In this document: piece after piece, positions 1,812 through 35,114 of the stretch
Numbering within the stretch: position 1 is the first letter of the stretch
Layout of the letters: every line of letters starts with the position of its first letter
DNA from: a candidate division TA06 bacterium
GTDB lineage: Bacteria; Hydrothermota; DG-26; E44-bin18; JADFOU01
DNA length: 35,219 nucleotides
Direction of reading: 5' to 3'
Assembly (NCBI GenBank): GCA_022562655.1
Contig: JADFOU010000001.1
Coordinates: 392 to 35,610, forward strand
Notes under the pieces: model-generated
Told to the model about the DNA's origin: nothing
The model's database searches: none
What the model saw: only the letters and a program-made list of their open reading frames with translations
Translations under genes and position numbers: made by a program

Positions 1812-3131
1812 TTACTTAAATTTACTTGCTCTTTTAGGCCTTATTTTTGCTTCCTTCATTATTTTAAATGGATCATAGATCCTTTTAATAGTCTCTCCCG
1901 TAGTTAGATCTAACGTCATTAAAAAAGTTTTAACAGCTGATTCAGTATGTCCAATCTTCCGATATACATTCCCTAAAAGAATACCCAAGCGAGGGTCTGA
2001 AGATATAGCTGACCTTACTTCTTCATCGGATAAATCCTTATTGAGGAGATGTTTTAATTTTTTTAATTCTTCATCACGTACTCTCCTATGTACTCCAGAT
2101 AACTCTTTTGGAGCAATCTCAAGAACTCGGTTTAAAAGATGCTCTAATCTCTTTTTTAATCCTTCCCTATCTTCCTTATCATATACGTTAGACGTTAACT
2201 CTTTTTCTACAAGTATAAGAACTTCATCCCGCAGGTGTCCCAATCCTTCAAGTTCTTCATTATATTCTTTCCTGTGTAATCCATTTAATATTTCTTCTGC
2301 AACACTCTCAAGTCTTTTTTTGTAACCCGCTGTATAAACTGCCTGCTTCTCTCTAACCCCAAACCCTAAAGAAGCAGAAGGCTTTCGGAGTTCTAATTTT
2401 GAGAGTTCAGATTCTGCTTTATATTTAAATTCTTGAACTTTATTTGCACATAATTGATAGTATAACAGTATCGATTCATTGAACTCATTTCTTCCAACTT
2501 CCTTATATAAATTTGAAACTTTTTCACACCGTGAAATTACATTCCTATAGAATACAGTTTTCTCATGACCCTGTTTTTCTTTTGAAACATTGAAATTACA
2601 TAAAGCCAAAAAATAATTGGCCATTAAATCAATTTCTTTATTTTTTAAAGACTCATTTGCCCAAAGCGCTGTCTCAAAATGAGTGTCATCGATTGCTTTT
2701 TCATATTCTCCTAAAACCGTATTCACCATCCCGCCGTCTAAGTGTACAAGTACAAGGGTAAGGTCATCGCGATTTGCAGTTGAATTTCTAACAATTTCTT
2801 TTAGCTCTTTTCTTAATTCACCTTTCCTCTGCTCATATTCCAAGAAAAGCGACTTTTCCAATGAAGACAAGGTTAACTCCGGTTCTGGTAACAATGCGGG
2901 TACCAACGCGGGTACCAACGCAACTTTTAACGTCTTCTTAACTTTCTCATTAATTCCCTTTAACTGATCTTGTTGAACCTCTTCCCAAACAAATTCATTA
3001 TTTACATGTCGTCTTATTTTTTTCCACTTAATTTCTAAGTTATCTATTACATTCAATAAAATCTTTGAAGAAATCCCAATCAGATTAGGATCGCTTCCTA
3101 ATTTCGATTCCATTCCTTTCCCTTCAACCAT
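1812..3131 (-). CDS. Hypothetical protein (439 aa), Lys/Glu-rich, probably all-helical; no family recognised
   Basis: Long ORF (track 1812..3152 with a TTG start). I prefer ATG at 3131 because GAGGGG lies about 9 nt upstream. It is markedly AT-richer than all neighbours. I could not see a P-loop, HxH or other catalytic motif. Confidence 0.7.
   Translation of the reverse strand: MVEGKGMESKLGSDPNLIGISSKILLNVIDNLEIKWKKIRRHVNNEFVWEEVQQDQLKGINEKVKKTLKVALVPALVPALLPEPELTLSSLEKSLFLEYEQRKGELRKELKEIVRNSTANRDDLTLVLVHLDGGMVNTVLGEYEKAIDDTHFETALWANESLKNKEIDLMANYFLALCNFNVSKEKQGHEKTVFYRNVISRCEKVSNLYKEVGRNEFNESILLYYQLCANKVQEFKYKAESELSKLELRKPSASLGFGVREKQAVYTAGYKKRLESVAEEILNGLHRKEYNEELEGLGHLRDEVLILVEKELTSNVYDKEDREGLKKRLEHLLNRVLEIAPKELSGVHRRVRDEELKKLKHLLNKDLSDEEVRSAISSDPRLGILLGNVYRKIGHTESAVKTFLMTLDLTTGETIKRIYDPFKIMKEAKIRPKRASKFK
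2896..2919. repeat. Exact 2 x 12-bp tandem repeat (gcgggtaccaac) inside the orphan gene
   Basis: Read directly from the sequence. It encodes the VALVPALVPALLP stretch. Confidence 0.9.
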
Positions 3132-3172
3132 TTTCGATTGTCCCCTCTTCAATGAAAATCAAAAAAGCATAA

Positions 3173-25821: not shown

Positions 25822-26745
25822 TTATTCACTTTCATCCAGTTCCTTTATGGCCTGCTCCATCTGTTCTCTTGTCGCTGACTTGCCGTGGAAGCCGACATTG
25901 TTCTCCATAAAGGAGACCCCTTTCCCCTTCACCGTCTGGGCAACAATCATGGTGGGTTTCCCTTTCGTCGCTTTCGCTTCATCGAGGGCGGCAAAAATCT
26001 CGTCGAAATTATGCCCGTCAATCTCGATGGTATGCCAGCCAAAGGCGCACCACTTTTCCGCCAAGGGAGCAATGTCCATCACCTCTTCCACAGTCCCCTC
26101 TGTTTCCAAATGATTATAATCTATAATACCGCAAACGTGGTCAAGTTTGTAATGAGCACCTGACATCGCAGCCTCCCAGACCGATCCCTCCTGCTGTTCC
26201 CCATCCCCCATCACCACATAAACCCGATAATCCTTCCCATCCAACCTCCCCGCCAGCGCCATCCCATTCCCCACAGAGAGCCCGTGTCCAAGAGAGCCTG
26301 TGGAGATCTCCAGGGTTGGCAGGTGGATCATACAGGGATGTCCCTGAAGAGGGGAGCCCAACTTTCTCAAAGTGGGAAGAATCTCGTGAGCAATATAGCC
26401 CGTTCGGGCGTAGACCGAATAGAGAGCAGGACACCCATGGCCCTTGGAGAGGATAAACCGATCCCGATCCGCCCAGTAGCGGTCATTGGGCTTATGTCTC
26501 ATCTCCCCCCAGAAGAGAGCCACCAAAAGATCTGTGGCAGAGAGGGAACCGCCAGGATGGCCCGAACCCGCCTCCGTCGTCATGCGAATGATATCTTTCC
26601 GAACCTCCCTCGCAATTTCCCTCAGTACCTTCTCATCTCGGGTCTGGGAGAAGGGAGAGACCCTCTCTATATTGACAGGAGATTCTGGTGCCGTTTTCAT
26701 CACCTTTGCTGTGATCATTTCCCTTTTCATCTCTTTCACCTTCAT
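25822..26745 (-). CDS. Transketolase, N-terminal (ThDP-binding) subunit
   Basis: GSGHPGGSLS, SKGHGCPALY and GDGEQQEG. The true start may be one of the internal Met codons (M6, M10 or M16). Confidence 0.9.
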   Translation of the reverse strand: MKVKEMKREMITAKVMKTAPESPVNIERVSPFSQTRDEKVLREIAREVRKDIIRMTTEAGSGHPGGSLSATDLLVALFWGEMRHKPNDRYWADRDRFILSKGHGCPALYSVYARTGYIAHEILPTLRKLGSPLQGHPCMIHLPTLEISTGSLGHGLSVGNGMALAGRLDGKDYRVYVVMGDGEQQEGSVWEAAMSGAHYKLDHVCGIIDYNHLETEGTVEEVMDIAPLAEKWCAFGWHTIEIDGHNFDEIFAALDEAKATKGKPTMIVAQTVKGKGVSFMENNVGFHGKSATREQMEQAIKELDESE

Positions 26746-26769: not shown

Positions 26770-27294
26770 TTATGCCAACGCCTTAATGAGTTCAACACAG
26801 AAGACAGGGAGGTCATCCGGTTTGCGGGACGTAATCAGTTTCCCATTTACGACTACTTCCTGATCTACATACTTGGCACCCGCATGGATCAGGTCATCCT
26901 TTATCGCAGAGAAGCAGGTGACGGTCTTGCCCTGAAGGATCCCAGAAGAAGCCAGCATCCATCCCCCGTGACAGATAGCGGCGACTACTTTGCCCCTCTC
27001 ATGTGCCTCTTTCACCAATCGAACCATCGCCTCACACCTCCGCATCAGATCTGGAGCATACCCTCCTGGGATCACGACCGCATCATAAGATTCATCGATA
27101 ACCTCATCCACCCGTTTCTCTTCCTCCAAGGGATAGCCATGCTTACCCTTATAGTGCTTTGAGCGTCCCGTCCCGACAAAGATCACCTCTGCCCCTTCTT
27201 CCTTAAGACGATAGTAAGGATACCAGACTTCCAATTCCTGATAGAGGTCTTCCACCAGGATGAGAACCCGTCTCCCTTTGAGGGTTTCATTCAT
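26770..27294 (-). CDS. DJ-1/PfpI family protein
   Basis: VVIPGG...AAICHGG nucleophile elbow (Cys-His). The ATG overlaps the nuoI stop (ATGA, 27291..27294). Confidence 0.88.
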   Translation of the reverse strand: MNETLKGRRVLILVEDLYQELEVWYPYYRLKEEGAEVIFVGTGRSKHYKGKHGYPLEEEKRVDEVIDESYDAVVIPGGYAPDLMRRCEAMVRLVKEAHERGKVVAAICHGGWMLASSGILQGKTVTCFSAIKDDLIHAGAKYVDQEVVVNGKLITSRKPDDLPVFCVELIKALA

Positions 27295-27863
27295 TTTTTT
27301 CTTGTCGTTCCGGTGATCCCTGCCTCCTCCATCTTGCCCCTTGTTCCGCCACCGCCGAGAGGCCCGAAATGGGGCCTATATCCGTTATCAAATCCCAGCT
27401 TGTCCGCACGATTGAGGAGCATCTCCATGGTAAAGATAGACTCTTCTCGGGTATCGGTGGCAAGATCATACTCCTTACTCATGATGATCGCCTCTTCCGG
27501 GCAGGCATCCACGCAGTAACCACAGAAGACACACCGAAGCATGTCAATGTCAAACCTTGTCGGAATTTTCTCAACCCGGTTATTGGGGTGCTCCCCCGCC
27601 TCAATATGGATACAGTCCGCGGGACAGATGGTCGCACAGAGGAAACAGGCGGTGCATTTGGGAGTACCATCCTCATGTTTTGTGAGGATGTGAACTCCCC
27701 GAAACCGTTCGGAATAGTCTCGTTCCTCCTCTGGATACTGGATGGTCACCCGATTCCTCAGGAATATCGTTCGAAAAAAATTGGAGAGAGTGACCCAGAG
27801 CCCCCTCAGAGTATCCAGGGGTCCCACCTTCTCGACCTTCACCACCTTCACATAAGATTCCAT
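27291..27863 (-). CDS. nuoI: NADH-quinone oxidoreductase subunit I (2x[4Fe-4S])
   Basis: CTACFLCATICP and CVFCGYCVDACP ferredoxin motifs, plus a ~35-aa Gly-rich C-terminal tail. Confidence 0.9.
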   Translation of the reverse strand: MESYVKVVKVEKVGPLDTLRGLWVTLSNFFRTIFLRNRVTIQYPEEERDYSERFRGVHILTKHEDGTPKCTACFLCATICPADCIHIEAGEHPNNRVEKIPTRFDIDMLRCVFCGYCVDACPEEAIIMSKEYDLATDTREESIFTMEMLLNRADKLGFDNGYRPHFGPLGGGGTRGKMEEAGITGTTRKK

Positions 27864-27963: not shown

Positions 27964-29574
27964 TTAACTACTAATCCGCCTTCCTAGATCTCCAATCCCC
28001 TTCAGTGTCATTCCCTGGAATGCCCTCTCCTCTTTGGAGAGTTGAAGAAAAACGTCCTGGGCGGTAGGAAAAGAGAGACTCACACCAAAATGCACTAAAA
28101 GATCTCTGAAGATCTCCCAATCCGGTCTCGACTCCCCGATAGGAGGAAAAGCCCTGTGGATCTGTTGAACCCTGTCCTCATAATTGGTGAAGGTCCCATC
28201 CTTCTCCGCATAGGTACAGGAAGGAAGGACGACATGAGCAGCCCTCATTCCCTCTCCATTATGAGTGGCATGCATCACCACAAACTCCGCCTTCTCGAGA
28301 GCTTCTTTGAGTAAGGTCTTATCCGGGAAATGGTCAATGGGTCTCTGCAGATAAAGCCCCTTGATCTTCCCTTCTTTGACAGCGGTCAATATCCCTTTTG
28401 TATCCAAACCTCCATTCTTGGGAACAAGATCCAGGGCAAGGGCTCCTCGGGTATTCGGATTCTCATCCTTCCTCCGGAGAATCGAATCCTCCATTTCCCG
28501 GACTTTTTTATCCTCATCATTCACTCGAAAATCCATAAGAGAGGTTCCAATCCCCTCTCTTATCCATTTCTTGAAGAGAAAGAGATCCTCATTTGTCCCT
28601 TGAGGGGATGCAATCCCTGCGATGGCTTCTGGACCTGACTCTTCTTTGATTTTTTTGAGTTCTTTGACGACCCGATCCAGAGCCTCCTCCCAGGGTGAGG
28701 GCTCCAGGTTTTCACCATTCCGGATCATCGGGTATTTTAACCGGTTTTCCCCGTTGATCAATGGGTAAGCCATCCTCCCCTTATCACACATCCAACTCTT
28801 ATTCACCTCGGGGTTCCTCCGGGGGACAAGGCGAAAGACAACTCCCTTTGTATGGTCAATCCGGATATTACAACCCGTAGAACAGGTCGGGCAGACCGAC
28901 TTCGTCCCCTTCAGAAACCAGACCCTCTGTTTGAATCGGAAGTCCTTGCTTGTGAGGGCTCCCACCGGACAGATATCCACCACATTTCCTGAGTAGGAAT
29001 TATCAATGGGTTGGTCTTTATAGGTCCCGATCTCTGTCCGATCTCCCCGTTTGTAGAATTGCAACTCTCCCGTATGGGTCACCTCGTCAAAAAAGCGGAT
29101 ACAACGTGAACAGAGGATACACCGCTCCGTATCCAGGACGATCATCTCGCCGAGATCAATCACCTTCCGCTTCAGAACCTTCTCCCTGAGGCCAATCCGA
29201 CTGTTGTGGAGACCATGGTTCATATAGTAATCCTGGAGCCCGCACTCTCCTGCCTGGTCACAGATGGGGCAGTCGATGGGGTGGTTGATCAGGAGAAACT
29301 CCATCACACTCTCCTGAGCCTTTGTCACGTTTTCGTTCTTTGTATGAACCACCATCCCATCCGCCACAGGAGTGGCACAGGCGATGGGGAGTTTCGGCAT
29401 CCCCTCCACCTCCACGAGGCACATCCTACAGTTCCCATCAATGGAGAGATCCGGGTGATAGCAGTAGTGGGGGATATGAATGTCGTTTTCCAAGGCTGCC
29501 TGGATGATGACCGTCCCTTCCGGAACCTCTAATTCTTTTCCGTCAATAGTGATCTTAACCATATAGGTTTTCAT
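27964..29574 (-). CDS. nuoG: NADH-quinone oxidoreductase subunit G, short form (536 aa)
   Basis: N-terminal 2Fe-2S domain (CYHPDLSIDGNCRMCLVEV), HPIDCPICDQAGEC, CILCSRCIRF, and a partial molybdopterin-like domain. Confidence 0.88.
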   Translation of the reverse strand: MKTYMVKITIDGKELEVPEGTVIIQAALENDIHIPHYCYHPDLSIDGNCRMCLVEVEGMPKLPIACATPVADGMVVHTKNENVTKAQESVMEFLLINHPIDCPICDQAGECGLQDYYMNHGLHNSRIGLREKVLKRKVIDLGEMIVLDTERCILCSRCIRFFDEVTHTGELQFYKRGDRTEIGTYKDQPIDNSYSGNVVDICPVGALTSKDFRFKQRVWFLKGTKSVCPTCSTGCNIRIDHTKGVVFRLVPRRNPEVNKSWMCDKGRMAYPLINGENRLKYPMIRNGENLEPSPWEEALDRVVKELKKIKEESGPEAIAGIASPQGTNEDLFLFKKWIREGIGTSLMDFRVNDEDKKVREMEDSILRRKDENPNTRGALALDLVPKNGGLDTKGILTAVKEGKIKGLYLQRPIDHFPDKTLLKEALEKAEFVVMHATHNGEGMRAAHVVLPSCTYAEKDGTFTNYEDRVQQIHRAFPPIGESRPDWEIFRDLLVHFGVSLSFPTAQDVFLQLSKEERAFQGMTLKGIGDLGRRISS

Positions 29575-29656
29575 TTAGAATTCTAAATTCCAACATTCGG
29601 GTTAACCTTCTAATCTAAAATCCGTTCTGAGAGATTAAATCCATTGGTTACGGTAA

Positions 29657-30037
29657 TTACAATTTTTTAAATGTAGAAAAAATCTGAGTTGCCACTATCA
29701 TTCCCTTTGCACTAAGAGAAGAAAGGTTGGGTATAGTATCATCATAGTCTGCTTTTCTTCTGTCTTTCTTCAGACGCCTCCCTGCTTCACCTATTTTCTT
29801 AAGGGGAATTTCAGTCTGGCTTCTGAACCACTTCCAAACGATTATATGATCTGTCCCAGTGTTAGTGATCTGAACCTCAGGCTTATTATCCCGCAAATAA
29901 TTTCTTGCCTTACAAAAGACTGCGTAATAAGCTCTGCTGATGGCTGAACGCAATTTGGAGTCTTGAGTCGAAGGGTTCGTTGGTTGCCCTGCGAGTTCCT
30001 TCGCTAAATTTAGATAGTCGATCCAATCGAAACTCAT
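29657..30037 (-). CDS. Small hypothetical protein (126 aa), tentatively a HEPN-like four-helix domain
   Basis: Pattern WIDYLNLAKELAG...LRSAISRAYYAVFCKARNYL...RRLKKDRRKADYDD resembles HEPN-type helices. I could not find a canonical Rx4-6H. The ATG overlaps the upstream stop (ATGA at 30034..30037). Confidence 0.45.
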   Translation of the reverse strand: MSFDWIDYLNLAKELAGQPTNPSTQDSKLRSAISRAYYAVFCKARNYLRDNKPEVQITNTGTDHIIVWKWFRSQTEIPLKKIGEAGRRLKKDRRKADYDDTIPNLSSLSAKGMIVATQIFSTFKKL

Positions 30038-30537
30038 AAGAATTCAACATCAATGCAGAGTTTGCCTTGCCCTCGGTCCATAGCTCTAAGCCACCACTCC
30101 TTATCAAATTTATCAAGTCTCTCCAATGCTTCCTTCGGTGAGAGACTCGTTTGAATAAAGGCGAAGAATTCCTTCTCTTCTTCTTCCGCTTCAGGATCGG
30201 TCACTACTTCAAGGACCACATGGGGGTGATGTCCGAAGTAATCCTCAATCCGGGCATATACTTCCAGCAACAGAGTAACGAGAAAAGAATTGGTTGAAAG
30301 AAATTGAAGAACTTCTGATCTTCTTCTTACAGTATAAGATCGCTCAAGAAATTCCAATAGAATTGGGTCGAGGCGAACAGTTGCGGCACCCACCTGTTGC
30401 CAGGGAGTACCAAGTTTTACAACATTCCATGCATGAGTCCGTGAATGTAATGAAATCCACTCCTGTTCATGAGCTTCGGCAATTCTATAAATCGGTTGAT
30501 CGATTAAATCCTCAGAAAAGTTCTCTACTTCAGGCAT
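30034..30537 (-). CDS. Hypothetical protein (167 aa) with an acidic segment in its C-terminal half; no family recognised
   Basis: Track ORF 30034..30615 begins with TTG. I prefer ATG 30537 (MPEVENF) because GGAGGAG lies immediately upstream. It is translationally coupled to the 126-aa gene. Confidence 0.6.
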   Translation of the reverse strand: MPEVENFSEDLIDQPIYRIAEAHEQEWISLHSRTHAWNVVKLGTPWQQVGAATVRLDPILLEFLERSYTVRRRSEVLQFLSTNSFLVTLLLEVYARIEDYFGHHPHVVLEVVTDPEAEEEEKEFFAFIQTSLSPKEALERLDKFDKEWWLRAMDRGQGKLCIDVEFL

Positions 30538-30615
30538 TCTCCTCCGTTGAAACCACTGAGACTGGTTAGGTATAGGAAACGACGCTTTCCCTAATGTAGA
30601 TGAAAGATTGGCCAA

Positions 30616-31359
30616 TTATTCTTTCTCCTGTTCAAATATTTGTCTCAATCGGTCTGTTAGGCAGGCCTCAAAAGTATCCTTGATATGTTGATGGGCAATC
30701 TGTATCCATTCAAGGACATTATCAAAGGTTATTTTCCTAGATTGAGCAAGAGAATAATCTAAATCGAGGATCATTGCTATCAAGCCGGGTCTATCCACTT
30801 CAGCGTTTGCCAACTCCATCTTCAGGATATCTCTTGAATTTTGATGAGACAACTGAATCCCTGCAATAAAGGGACCATGCTCTTGGGGTAATTGTTTCCC
30901 TAAAAAGGGGTAAAACTGCAAGTAATCTTCTATCTTTATTTCCTGCACTGGAATTTCAATGCGGTTAATGTATCGGAGCCCAATGTTTTGAATTCCTTTC
31001 GGCTTGGCTATTCTACGATAAACATCGAAGCCCTGCTGAATTAAAGGCAGGAACTCCTCCCAAGTAGAATAAGGCTTCAAGTGGTTGACGGATAGAAAAT
31101 TGGGTCCGACCTGTATCAAGACCTTTCCATCGTCTCGTAAAAACTGAATTCGTTCTGTTGTTCTCATTTGTTGTTTAACACCTTCTTGATCGGCAGTAAG
31201 GTTTCCTTCAATTACCTTGACTGGCCGTCTTTTCGGGAAGTCCTTCTTCACCTCTTCATAGACCAGGCCTGGGATAGCGAGATCCCATGAGGCGTCTGGC
31301 TCAAACTGAATACCACAGAGTGCCTCAATGAGAGGAGGATTCTTATACTTTCTATCCAA
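30616..31359 (-). CDS. TIGR04255-like uncharacterised protein (247 aa)
   Basis: The N-terminus YKNPPLIEALCGIQF matches my recollection of the TIGR04255 family signature, and the size fits (~250-270 aa). TTG start with no clear SD. Confidence 0.55.
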   Translation of the reverse strand: MDRKYKNPPLIEALCGIQFEPDASWDLAIPGLVYEEVKKDFPKRRPVKVIEGNLTADQEGVKQQMRTTERIQFLRDDGKVLIQVGPNFLSVNHLKPYSTWEEFLPLIQQGFDVYRRIAKPKGIQNIGLRYINRIEIPVQEIKIEDYLQFYPFLGKQLPQEHGPFIAGIQLSHQNSRDILKMELANAEVDRPGLIAMILDLDYSLAQSRKITFDNVLEWIQIAHQHIKDTFEACLTDRLRQIFEQEKE

Positions 31360-31410
31360 ATTAGCAATATTTTGAACCTTGAAATGATCCGTCTAAGGCA
31401 GATTGCTTTG

Positions 31411-32700
31411 TTAATTCTGAGTTTGACTATGCGATGCACACCCTCCATTGGCGATATGATCCTCAAACTCTTTCCGATATTTTATGATAAAACTCTCAAT
31501 CGGGGAGGCCGCCGCATCGGCAAGGGTGCAGACCGTCCGGAACTTCATGCGATCCGCAACATCCATCAGGAGGTCTAAATCCGGCAGTTCTCCCTTCCCT
31601 TCTACAAAAGGATGGAGCAACTTAACCGCCCACCCCGTCCCTTCCCGGCAAGGGGTACACTGACCACAGGACTCATCTGCAAAAAACTCGGTTAATACCA
31701 AGAGGGACCTGACCATGCATGCCTCCTCCCCAAAGACGATCACCCCTCCCGACCCCAGGTGTGAACCGATCTCTTTCATGGAATCAAAGTCAAGGATCGC
31801 CTTATCGCACTCCTCTGCCGTCAGGATGGGAACAGAAGGACCTCCTGGAATAATCCCCTTCAACCGACTCCCATTCTGCATCCCACCACAGTGGTCATTG
31901 ATCAATTCCATCAAGGGTGAACCCATTTCTAACTCATAAACCCCAGGTTTCTTCACATGCCCGCTCACGCAGAAGAGGCGGGTTCCCGGGCTCTTCTCGG
32001 GGCCGATCTTGGCATAGGTGTCACTCCCGTTCTGGAGTATCCAGGGGACCGTAGCCAAGGTCTCCGTATTATTCACCACTGTCGGACACCCGAAGAGACC
32101 CTGGATTGCAGGGAAAGGAGGCTTCACCTTGGGATAGCCCCGTTTTCCTTCCAAAGAAGAGAGCATGCCCGTCTCATCCCCACAGATATAAGCCCCTGCT
32201 CCTTTATAGACAATGATCTCCAGATCAAAACCCGTCCCCAGAATATTCTTCCCCAAATACCCCTTCTCCTTCGCCTCTTCAACTGCCCTCTCCGTATTCT
32301 CAATACAGGAGGTATACTCCCCACGAATATAGACAAAGGCGAGGTGAACATCCAGGGCATAAGCGGCAATGATCATCCCTTCCAACATCTGATGGGTGTT
32401 TCTCTCCATCAGGAGGCGATCCTTGAAGGTCCCGGGCTCACTCTCATCGCTGTTGTTCACAAGATATTTGGGCTTGGGAGACTTCTTATCCATAAAACTC
32501 CACTTGAGCCCCGTGGGAAATCCGGCACCACCCCGCCCACGTAAGCCCGACTTCTTCATCTCCTCAATAATCTCCTCCGGCGTCATCTCCTTGAGGGCTT
32601 TTTGAAAAGCCTTGTACCCCCCATGAGCCTCATAACTCTTCAGGGTATGGGACTCCGGATCGTCAAGGTTTGCGGTGAGGATTTTCTTATGCTCTCTCAT
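31411..32700 (-). CDS. nuoF: NADH-quinone oxidoreductase subunit F
   Basis: GRGGAGFPTG, GAGAYICGDETGMLSSLEG (FMN/NADH site) and ESCGQCTPCREG (N3 cluster). Confidence 0.95.
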   Translation of the reverse strand: MREHKKILTANLDDPESHTLKSYEAHGGYKAFQKALKEMTPEEIIEEMKKSGLRGRGGAGFPTGLKWSFMDKKSPKPKYLVNNSDESEPGTFKDRLLMERNTHQMLEGMIIAAYALDVHLAFVYIRGEYTSCIENTERAVEEAKEKGYLGKNILGTGFDLEIIVYKGAGAYICGDETGMLSSLEGKRGYPKVKPPFPAIQGLFGCPTVVNNTETLATVPWILQNGSDTYAKIGPEKSPGTRLFCVSGHVKKPGVYELEMGSPLMELINDHCGGMQNGSRLKGIIPGGPSVPILTAEECDKAILDFDSMKEIGSHLGSGGVIVFGEEACMVRSLLVLTEFFADESCGQCTPCREGTGWAVKLLHPFVEGKGELPDLDLLMDVADRMKFRTVCTLADAAASPIESFIIKYRKEFEDHIANGGCASHSQTQN

Positions 32701-33338: not shown

Positions 33339-35114
33339 CTAACGTTCGAGCTCCCCTGCTACGATATTGAGACTCCCCAGAATGGCAACCAGATCCGCGA
33401 TGAGCCCCCCCTTAACCATACTGTCAAAAGCCTGAAAGACGGCAAAGCAGGGGGGACGAACCTTGAACCGATAGGGATGCCCCGTCCCATCACTGATGAT
33501 ATAGAACCCCAGTTCCCCATTGGCGGCTTCGGTATAGGTATAGACCTCTCCAGGCGGTACCTGGATCCCCTCCATCACCAGTTTGAACTGCTGCATGAGT
33601 GCCTCAATATTGGTATAGACCTCCTCCTTCGGGGGCATCGCCACCCGCTTGTCATCGGTGATGACAGGTCCTTCAGGGATATCCTTCAATGCCTGTTCAA
33701 TGATCCGGATGGACTGGCGCATCTCCTCCATCCGAACCAGATACCGGTCATAGACATCCCCCCGGGTCCCGATGGGGACATCAAATTCAAACTGGTCATA
33801 TCCATAATAGGGATGGGCCTTCCGGACATCATAGGGGACCCCCGCCGCCCGCAGGCAGGGACCCGTGAATCCCCAATCCACGGCATCTTCAGCCGTCATA
33901 TCACTCACCCCCACCGTCCGCCTCCGGAAGATGACATTCCGGGTATTCATCTTGTCCACATCGTTGATAAACTTGGGAAGCTTTTTCAGAATCTCCTTCG
34001 ACCTCGGAATAAAATCCTTTGGTATATCCCACATCAGCCCACCGATCCTGGCATAACTTACCGTCAGGCGGGCCCCACAGCAGGACTCAATCAAACTATA
34101 GATCTCTTCCCTCGGCTGGAAGAAATACCAGAAGTTGGTGAGGGCACCCAGATCCACAAGATTCGTCCCGATACAGACCATGTGGTCCATGATCCGGTTG
34201 AACTCGGAGAGGATCACATGAATCCGCATTGCACGCTCCGGGACCTCAATCCCCAGGAGCTTCTCCACCGCCATACAGTAGCCCACATTGTTCATAAAGG
34301 CGGAGAGATAATTGAGCCGATCCACATAGGGCATCACCTGATTGTAGTCATGGGTCTCGCACATCTTCTCGAAACACCGGTGGAGGTAACCGATCTCGGT
34401 CTGGCACTCCTCGATCCGCTCTCCATCTAAAACGACCTGGAACCGGTAGACCCCGTGGGTGGCAGGATGGGCGGGACCAATGCTGAGAACCATCCTCTCC
34501 CCTGTCTCCATGTCCTCCTTTGGCTTCGCCAAAACCTCCTCAATATCCACTACTTCATAGGTCCGGCTGAGCCGATGGCGCTCCTCCGCATCATAATCCT
34601 TTCTCAGTGGGTACCCCACAAACTCCTCATGGGTGAGGATCCGCCGGAGGTAGGGATGTCCCTTGAACTGGAACCCGAACATATCAAAGGCTTCTCGCTC
34701 AAACCAGTTTGCCCCCTTCCAGATAGGGGTAACAGATTCGAGAGAGAGATCGGACTCCTCCAGGGGAACCTTGAGCCTCACGCGGTGTTTCTTATCGATG
34801 GAGTAGAGGTGATAAACTGCCTCAAAGCGATGATTCTGAACAGTACCTCCCCCCGGACCCTTTCCTTGGAGATGAACATGATACGGTGCTTGAAACTGAG
34901 GTCCCTGATTTCGGTTCAGGTTATCCACCCCACACAAATCCAAAAAGAGTTTATAATCAAGATCCGGGTGGGTCTTCAGAGTCTTGCAGACCTCAAGGAG
35001 ATCCTCTCGTTTGATCGTCACCACAAGATTTCCAAAAGGGTCCTCGGCATGGAGGATCGCCTCAGGATGGCGTTCCTTCAAAACTCGAACAGTAGCCTTT
35101 GTGTCTAACGTCAT
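33339..35114 (-). CDS. nuoCD: Fused NADH-quinone oxidoreductase subunit C/D
   Basis: N-terminal NuoC part (RFEAVYHLYS, ANWFEREAFDMFG) is joined in frame to a full NuoD (GPAHPATHGV ... C-terminal LGSLNIVAGELER). Confidence 0.93.
   Translation of the reverse strand: MTLDTKATVRVLKERHPEAILHAEDPFGNLVVTIKREDLLEVCKTLKTHPDLDYKLFLDLCGVDNLNRNQGPQFQAPYHVHLQGKGPGGGTVQNHRFEAVYHLYSIDKKHRVRLKVPLEESDLSLESVTPIWKGANWFEREAFDMFGFQFKGHPYLRRILTHEEFVGYPLRKDYDAEERHRLSRTYEVVDIEEVLAKPKEDMETGERMVLSIGPAHPATHGVYRFQVVLDGERIEECQTEIGYLHRCFEKMCETHDYNQVMPYVDRLNYLSAFMNNVGYCMAVEKLLGIEVPERAMRIHVILSEFNRIMDHMVCIGTNLVDLGALTNFWYFFQPREEIYSLIESCCGARLTVSYARIGGLMWDIPKDFIPRSKEILKKLPKFINDVDKMNTRNVIFRRRTVGVSDMTAEDAVDWGFTGPCLRAAGVPYDVRKAHPYYGYDQFEFDVPIGTRGDVYDRYLVRMEEMRQSIRIIEQALKDIPEGPVITDDKRVAMPPKEEVYTNIEALMQQFKLVMEGIQVPPGEVYTYTEAANGELGFYIISDGTGHPYRFKVRPPCFAVFQAFDSMVKGGLIADLVAILGSLNIVAGELER

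Follow-up and report, generated by a model that had tools for sequence, protein, structure and literature searches.

In HEPN-MNT (HepT/MntA), the type VII toxin-antitoxin (TA) system, the HEPN protein HepT carries the canonical R-phi-xxx-H motif, and a conserved Tyr adjacent to it is the acceptor of AMPylation (PMC13000451). Among the HEPN proteins associated with minimal nucleotidyltransferases (MNT), a variant is found that has Asp in place of the His and a conserved His elsewhere, and that is possibly active through this other His (PMC3710099). In RnlA-RnlB and LsoA-LsoB, the adjacent gene encodes a small, non-enzymatic protein that inactivates the HEPN effector by binding to it directly, and the usual order in TA systems places the antitoxin gene upstream (PMC3710099). 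The toxin-antitoxin-chaperone (TAC) systems contain a SecB-like chaperone and an antitoxin with a chaperone-addiction extension (PMC9098466). Here we describe a cassette of three genes, designated A, B and C, which lies between nuoF and nuoG in a 35,219-nt stretch of DNA (hereafter the window) from a candidate division TA06 bacterium (GenBank assembly GCA_022562655.1, contig JADFOU010000001.1, positions 392 to 35,610 of the forward strand). A preliminary description of the window had proposed the cassette as an acquired TA or defence-type module. We read the trio as an apparently undescribed tripartite HEPN module, whose conservation and mobility are solidly supported and whose function we infer.

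A three-gene cassette at the nuoF-nuoG junction and its recurrence elsewhere

Three intact open reading frames (ORFs) on the minus strand fill the 1836 bp between the upstream flank nuoF (31411..32700, minus strand) and the downstream flank nuoG (27964..29574, minus strand), as the preliminary description had reported. On a nearly identical sister contig (L111), nuoF matched the Pfam families Complex1_51K, SLBB and NADH_4Fe-4S, and nuoG matched Fer2, NADH-G_4Fe-4S_3 and Molybdopterin. Gene A (30616..31359, minus strand), the first of the module, has a TTG start and encodes a 247-aa protein of the TIGR04255 family of NCBIfam. Gene B (30034..30615, minus strand), delimited by ORF and start assignment, also begins with TTG and encodes a 193-aa protein of an unnamed family, the putative neutraliser of C. 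Gene C (29657..30037, minus strand), identified through homologs and a profile, encodes a basic 126-aa HEPN protein of the UPF0332/MNT-associated type, the putative effector. The spacers, whose lengths agreed with the preliminary description, measure 51 bp from the end of nuoF to the beginning of A (31360..31410, minus strand; no promoter or terminator call) and 82 bp from the end of C to the beginning of nuoG (29575..29656, minus strand; no terminator call). A consensus scan of the cassette and its spacers found neither terminator-like sites nor strong promoter matches, in line with the earlier remark that no obvious terminator is present.

To look for an empty site in close relatives, contigs were scanned for nuoF. 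The scan gave 26 nuoF loci, all at most 55% identical to the nuoF of the window and none from TA06, of which 17 were used for nuoG spacing; these distant loci serve as a proxy for an empty-site comparison within the lineage. In the 17 loci, which come from diverse phyla, nuoG starts about 17-450 nt past nuoF, as against 1836 nt in the window, and no insert was seen at any of these junctions. A search around the cassette for flanking repeats or an integration scar gave merely short matches at chance level. The window contains no tRNA gene, and no Rfam family reached significance in it.

The gene boundaries were then established. At the A-B junction (30613..30628, minus strand) a GGAG (30628..30625) inside A is followed by 6 nt, the TAA stop of A (30618..30616) and directly by the TTG start of B (30615..30613), so that the gap is 0 nt and the GGAG stands 9 nt upstream of the start. 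In 12 of 21 other A-B loci a GGAGG likewise lies in the last codons of A ('..MFEEV.E*') and B starts with ATG or GTG right after the A stop. The part of B that lies before the ATG at 30537 aligns to conserved N-terminal motifs of B homologs, and the gene callers used on the sister contigs also gave 193 aa. Because the homolog layout, the motif alignment and the sister-contig calls agree, we assign B 193 aa and an A-B gap of 0 nt. The annotation by NCBI of the source metagenome-assembled genome (locus tag IIA15_00150), with 167 aa and the ATG at 30537, and the preliminary description, with 167 aa and a 78-nt gap, are corrected accordingly. The B-C junction was as first described, a 4-nt ATGA overlap (30034..30037, minus strand) in which the ATG of C lies over the TGA of B. 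With this layout all three genes are translationally coupled.

To find the cassette elsewhere, metagenome contigs were scanned with a back-translated pattern derived from the B alignment; ORFs were called at the resulting 80 loci and searched with A, B, C and D, the last being an unrelated protein of about 206 aa. C lay directly downstream of B in 69 of the 80 loci, mostly with the 4-nt overlap. A was directly upstream of B in 22 loci, where C followed directly in 19 of the 20 with enough room, and D took the upstream position in about 21; the rest were B-C pairs. The invariant core is therefore a B-C pair in which the stop of B and the start of C overlap. When three A homologs were chosen irrespective of their neighbours, each proved to be the first gene of an A (247-248 aa), B (178-180 aa, 0-nt gap) and C (123-125 aa, 4-nt overlap) set. 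Altogether, the arrangement A (about 247 aa), B (about 178 aa) and C (about 125 aa), with the same order and couplings, was found in at least 25 other loci with unrelated neighbours, which answers the earlier question of whether the three families co-occur. The neighbours varied by locus and included FTCD and serS, Memo and priA, NUDIX, Wzz-like genes, and a PQQ beta-propeller protein with BioY; one D-form locus had mutS and ybeY. TA genes stood beside some copies (PemK/SocA, UPF0150/RHH/PIN, HicAB and VapBC). Among 84 module loci, no homologs of window genes were found except NuoI-like and NuoCD, both only in two contigs, L046 and L047. These results show that the trio is a recurrent, mobile module that is not specific to complex I.

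The module was also found in a cultured organism. The megaplasmid pTB1 of Thermus brockianus GE-1 carries A (43% identity), a divergent B and a HEPN ORF (C profile E=1e-28), with CopG-VapC, an N4/N6 methylase and cas6 as neighbours. A tblastn search for B on plasmids gave no match, the Thermus protein being too far diverged, and this B was recognised by motif and a weak hidden Markov model (HMM) score only. The C-family ORF of pTB1 (L120, 4785..5192; NZ_CP016313.1, about 201173..201580) lies in a stretch without a listed gene; it may be unannotated, or may be missing from the incomplete gene table of PLSDB.

The composition of the cassette is clearly foreign. The GC content of the cassette region was 0.416, compared with 0.521 for nuoF; the lower GC claimed for the cassette thus held, and the contrast first given (38% against 54%) was somewhat exaggerated (41.6% against 52.1%). 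GC at third codon positions (GC3) was 0.37-0.42 for A, B and C, whereas the remaining 29 window genes averaged 0.556 (SD 0.07). Taken with the unrelated contexts of the trio elsewhere, this supports the later acquisition that had been proposed. Exact-protein look-ups of A, B, C and nuoF in the contig index returned no record, and a 99%-identical variant of C led to three contigs (L111-L113), the only ones with another copy of the trio at a nuoF-nuoG junction. They are 99.1-99.4% identical to the window and, by that identity, represent the same population in other samples. The trio is intact and conserved across the four samples of the population, and the differences between the window and L111-L113 amount to 1-3 per gene, too few for a selection test. 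The nuo location appears to result from a chance insertion in a single population.

Some single loci showed features of their own. Tandem duplicates or triplicates of B-C occurred on single contigs (L011, L024, L025 and L030). In L115 (6248..6652), C is present but was left uncalled in the JGI assembly, and it was called in the sister contigs L116 and L117. In L114 (4163..7521), A-B-C lies between two genes with Wzz-family matches, of which one is faint; this looks like an insertion into, or between, chain-length-determinant genes. In L047 (2256..3876), and likewise in L046, D-B-C directly follows nuoD-, nuoH- and nuoI-like (2x[4Fe-4S]) genes, with Trm5 and RadC on its other side. The module thus stands by complex-I-type genes in a second, independent place, which may be a coincidence.

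The three proteins of the module

Protein A matched TIGR04255 with 157 bits (cut-off 30; E=7e-46), residues 4-243 aligning to positions 1-252 of the 252-position profile. It is therefore a full-length, high-scoring member of the family to which the preliminary description had likened it. We found 593 homologs of A at 50% identity or higher, no PDB relative by sequence, and no match in Pfam or PADLOC (PADLOC-DB v2). NCBIfam describes TIGR04255 as 'sporadically distributed' and of unknown function, and our search of the literature found no mention of it. The AlphaFold2 (AF2) model of A (pLDDT 82, pTM 0.82) has an internally duplicated beta-alpha-beta4-alpha fold. Foldseek searches of PDB with this model gave S-adenosylmethionine decarboxylase (AdoMetDC) and TATA-box-binding proteins (TBP) as the best matches, with probability up to 1.00 and E about 2e-4. 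In the viral library BFVD, giant-virus TBP-like proteins and one unnamed protein were matched with TM-scores of 0.49-0.58, and the probability for TBP again reached 1.00. We read the predicted fold of A as a TBP-like, pseudo-dimeric saddle topology, which is not proof of homology.

Distant members of TIGR04255 (20-30% identity) on plasmids of Methylocystis, Chroococcidiopsis and Crinalium were found as the first of overlapping small gene sets. The downstream partners in these sets varied, one of them being an Xre-type helix-turn-helix (HTH) protein, and recombinase, integrase or Abi genes adjoined. In the unannotated record of the P2-like Ralstonia phage YO139_2 (L124, ON170239.1), a TIGR04255-like ORF lies near the genome end; an ORF of 165 aa overlaps it downstream, and one of 146 aa comes next. 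In this set the phage may carry a module led by TIGR04255, placed in a P2-like variable region. Because the distant plasmid members and the phage copy lead other small gene sets, the gene layouts suggest that TIGR04255 is an exchangeable front-end component of small modules. For protein D, which replaces A in part of the loci, no family match was found. Homology between A and D was tried with hhalign and gave probabilities of 0.05 and 0.12, and the two were treated as unrelated or too diverged to tell. Both contain a similarly placed 'GL(R/N)(Y/F)..IE' motif.

Protein B belongs to a large family: an exhaustive profile search of 1.84 billion representatives found 4393 clusters at E<=1e-3, of which 2584 reach E<=1e-10. 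It had no match in Pfam, NCBIfam, PADLOC or PHROG, and its profile had no PDB sequence match. Among the matches listed, the B domain lies at or near the C-terminus, behind a variable N-terminal extension; ten long members of the family contained no known domain and thus no informative fusion. In the AF2 model, residues of about 80-193 are predicted with pLDDT above 85 as helices on a three-stranded sheet, and residues 1-80 have mostly low pLDDT, except for a predicted helix at 43-67. A Foldseek search of PDB with the model gave nothing convincing (best E=7e-3, TM-score about 0.25, OsmC/Ohr). On adjacent predicted strands stand acidic residues, three of them invariant (E136, D140, E142) and two nearly invariant (D189, E191). 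B was also considered as a degenerate nucleotidyltransferase, which was ruled out by Pfam, PDB sequence, Foldseek and predicted topology.

The length of B follows its upstream partner. The median is 128 aa where B stands alone with C; it rises to 177 aa next to A and to 210 aa next to D, and the extensions of the A type and the D type differ in sequence. The A-type extension has low pLDDT and contains conserved MP[YH], F.LP.QAQW and W[QE]E.G.S.VR motifs; from the model, the extension (residues of about 1-80) is possibly disordered. The B of the window carries in addition a lineage-specific insertion at residues of about 26-62 (30430..30540), roughly RRRMPEVE...EQEWISLHSRTHA, which is not present in other A-associated B proteins, and it is owing to this N-terminal insertion that the protein has 193 aa and not about 177.

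Protein C has 482 homologs, many of them labelled UPF0332 or PF05168. It matched HEPN_IX of PADLOC weakly (E=1.3e-4) and phrog_5176 with E=4e-12. A profile of 42 C sequences matched the PDB HEPN proteins 9xbd/9xbc (E=2.6e-6), with SRAYYA and RNxxDY motifs in common, and the HEPN-like character first noted for this 126-aa protein was thereby upheld. In the 42 sequences R30, S34, R35, Y37, Y38, N46, R93, D97, Y98 and D100 are invariant, and H64 is nearly so; the motif of the family reads R93-N/R-x-x-D97-Y98. Since this pattern is that described for MNT-associated HEPN proteins (PMC3710099), C can be placed in the MNT-associated class by its motifs, and it may or may not be catalytically competent. 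Searches of the literature for UPF0332 together with HEPN, and for 9XBD, found no paper. The searches taken together assigned no ordinary metabolic fold to the trio (HEPN for C, TBP-like for A and no convincing match for B).

The charges of B and C are complementary. The core of B is acidic (pI 4.7 and net charge -10 in the window; pI 4.1-5.1 across the trios), and C is basic, with a pI of 9.8 in the window and 8.7-10.1 in 8 of 9 trios, L114 being the neutral exception (pI 6.8). A is also acidic, with a pI of 5.8 in the window and 4.8-6.0 across the trios.

Comparison with known systems and proposed action

The module resembles HEPN-MNT in that a small HEPN protein of the MNT class is encoded downstream of an overlapping partner gene, an invariant Arg motif is followed by an invariant Tyr (Y98, 42 sequences), and the distribution is mobile and patchy. 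It differs in that B is not a nucleotidyltransferase (no GSx10DxD motif, nucleotidyltransferase family or fold match), the catalytic His is replaced in C (RNxxDY), and A or D usually joins the pair as a third gene. With TAC it shares, by analogy only, the three-gene operon and an extension of the antitoxin-like protein, here B, that occurs only with a third gene and is specific to its type. In contrast to TAC, A has no SecB-like match and has a TBP-like duplicated alpha+beta saddle, it stands first in the operon, the extension of B is N-terminal, and C is a HEPN protein and not HigB or MqsR. Inhibition by a binding partner, as in RnlA-RnlB and LsoA-LsoB, is the mode that we propose for B and C. 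However, no relation of B to RnlB in sequence or fold was found, the gene order and the third component differ, and C, a minimal HEPN protein of 126 aa, contrasts with the large, multidomain RnlA. As for the TIGR04255 family, it is here shown leading small coupled modules. Among known defence systems in PADLOC-DB v2, the weak HEPN_IX match of C was the only one; together with the lack of Pfam matches for A and B, this bears out the earlier view that the trio is not a named system.

On the basis of these comparisons, we consider it probable, if by no means certain, that the cassette is a horizontally acquired, mobile, three-part HEPN module of the TA, abortive-infection or defence-like kind; the specific roles of A, B and C are less certain than this general reading. 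The idea of a TA or defence-type module was supported by the follow-up: the trio recurs as a unit elsewhere, and conservation at the nuoF-nuoG junction across a broad clade with native composition was not found, the copies there being the population copies of about 99% identity. The generic traits of type II TA systems are seen, namely small, co-directional, coupled genes, an antitoxin-like gene upstream, and a patchy, mobile distribution. In the mechanism that we propose, the module inserted between nuoF and nuoG would be transcribed by read-through from the nuo promoter, with nuoCD-E-F and nuoG-I. C would be the effector, a small basic HEPN protein that binds or cleaves RNA. B, made just before C, would be its cognate stoichiometric neutraliser (antitoxin) in the place of an MNT, and would mask the basic surface of C by direct binding. 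A (or D) would be an exchangeable third part that docks on the Trp motifs of the B extension and controls the stability or release of B as a sensor, adaptor or chaperone. The toxicity of C, its neutralisation by B, the contact between A and B and any trigger are thus parts of a predicted scheme.

Several observations weigh against this explanation. The toxicity of C is an assumption, and C may not be an RNase. It scored only 13.8 bits against the HEPN family PF05168, for which the gathering threshold is 22, and it lacks the canonical R-phi-xxx-H (Rx4-6H) motif, having R93-N-K-A-D97-Y98 with Tyr at the position of the His. Contact between A and B is suggested only by the co-variation of gene presence with the B extension. 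The model of B was built from a shallow alignment of 15 sequences, and neither A nor B matched PADLOC. A recognisable DNA-binding domain for autoregulation, such as HTH, RHH or AbrB, was found neither in B, the ten long family members included, nor in C. The TM-scores of A to TBP are low (about 0.3), and A is acidic, unlike the DNA-binding TBP. Most copies lie among housekeeping genes and not in defence islands, where the preliminary description had suggested looking for them.

Among other explanations, A, B and C could be native, lineage-specific accessory or assembly factors of complex I, co-regulated with the nuo operon. The three genes run in the direction of nuoF and nuoG without an intervening terminator call, all four samples of the population have them intact and conserved, and one D-B-C copy (L047) comes right after nuoD-nuoH-nuoI-like genes. 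Nevertheless, at least 25 other copies stand in unrelated contexts without nuo genes nearby, the L047 module is followed by Trm5 and RadC and not by nuo genes, the composition is foreign, 17 other nuoF-nuoG junctions are uninterrupted, and the sole copies inside a nuo operon are about 99% identical to each other. This explanation is largely refuted, and we give it very little credence. A different proposal keeps the mobility and drops the toxicity: the trio would be a non-toxic RNA- or nucleotide-binding regulatory or stress module, with an inactive HEPN protein in C and regulatory B and A, carried as selfish or mildly beneficial cargo. It would account for the lack of the canonical His at Rx4-6H in C, for the housekeeping surroundings of most copies and for the neutral C of L114, and HEPN proteins without the motif may act non-catalytically (PMC3710099). 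We consider it unlikely, because C retains the invariant R30, R35, N46, R93, D97, Y98 and D100 and the nearly invariant H64, a pattern compatible with activity through an alternative His (PMC3710099), and because the strict two-gene core, antitoxin-like order, charge pairing, tandem duplications and TA-rich neighbours are typical of TA systems.

Two further proposals are variants inside the TA framework and do not strictly exclude the three-part HEPN module that we favour. In one, B would be an enzyme analogous to MNT that inactivates C by covalent modification of Tyr98, as in type VII systems. C is of the MNT-associated HEPN class and has an invariant Tyr next to the motif, at the residue that is AMPylated in HepT; this position varies among the closest solved relatives (RNRSDYD in 9xbd, RNRSDFD in 9xbc), and the acidic residues E136, D140, E142, D189 and E191 of B lie on adjacent predicted strands. 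Yet B lacks GSx10DxD, an NTP_transf match in Pfam and a sequence match to MNT proteins in PDB, no nucleotidyltransferase was among its top 50 Foldseek matches, and no helix separates the two acidic-strand elements in its predicted topology, all of which makes an enzymatic B improbable. In the other, A would be a DNA-binding transcriptional repressor of a two-gene TA system, acting through the TBP-like saddle in the manner of omega in omega-epsilon-zeta. The Foldseek probabilities for TBP in PDB and BFVD and the lack of a DNA-binding domain in B and C speak for a repressor. The acidity of A argues against DNA binding in the style of TBP, as do the low TM-scores to TBP; moreover, no separate promoter to repress was called in the window, and the presence of A co-varies with a specific B extension, which points to contact between proteins. 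We therefore hold a repressor role of A to be quite doubtful.

If the three-part HEPN module is as proposed, it bears on several questions. A large unnamed family, B, occupies the place of the nucleotidyltransferase antitoxin without nucleotidyltransferase features, which would imply a different control of HEPN proteins. TIGR04255 gains a first context, at the head of small, coupled, mobile modules, and a predicted fold, duplicated and TBP-like. That the extension of B is specific to its partner, whether A or D, suggests a three-way protein interaction that can be tested, and the Thermus brockianus GE-1 plasmid offers the module in a cultured organism. The insertion itself indicates that such modules can settle in a respiratory operon and may ride its transcription without an obvious promoter or terminator of their own. 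More speculatively, TIGR04255 could be a widespread, exchangeable front end that leads varied effector modules on chromosomes, plasmids and phages, and B a non-enzymatic replacement of MNT, the two together forming a new tripartite class based on recognition of an antitoxin docking peptide by the third protein; we offer this broader view as possible but tentative.

Other features of the window and its sister contigs

The local nuo cluster is non-canonical. It consists of a fused nuoCD (33339..35114), nuoE, nuoF, the cassette, a short nuoG (536 aa) and nuoI (27291..27863), after which a DJ-1/PfpI-family gene (26770..27294) and a split transketolase (25822..26745) directly follow. No nuoH is present between nuoG and nuoI, and no membrane-arm genes were found in the window downstream of nuoI. 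The preliminary description had argued that insertion inside an essential operon would guarantee retention of the cassette; this is speculation. The local cluster comprises peripheral-arm genes only (nuoCD-E-F-G-I, no nuoH).

The 3' end of nuoF, beside the cassette junction, is unusually divergent. Between 31441 and 31584 there are 10 differences from the sister contigs in 144 nt (about 7% divergence), as compared with about 0.3% inside the cassette, and the variants at the nuoF end are common to all three sisters. This cluster of differences may be a recombination tract. In L112 (ENA ERZ23498856), nuoF contains an in-frame stop and was called as pieces of 52 and 360 aa, which may reflect a pseudogene or a sequencing error.

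The lowest GC content of the window was found outside the cassette, in a 446-aa ORF at 1812..3152 (minus strand) with weak matches to tetratricopeptide repeats (TPR). Its GC content (0.343; GC3 0.277) is lower than that of the cassette, and it is therefore probably another foreign gene.

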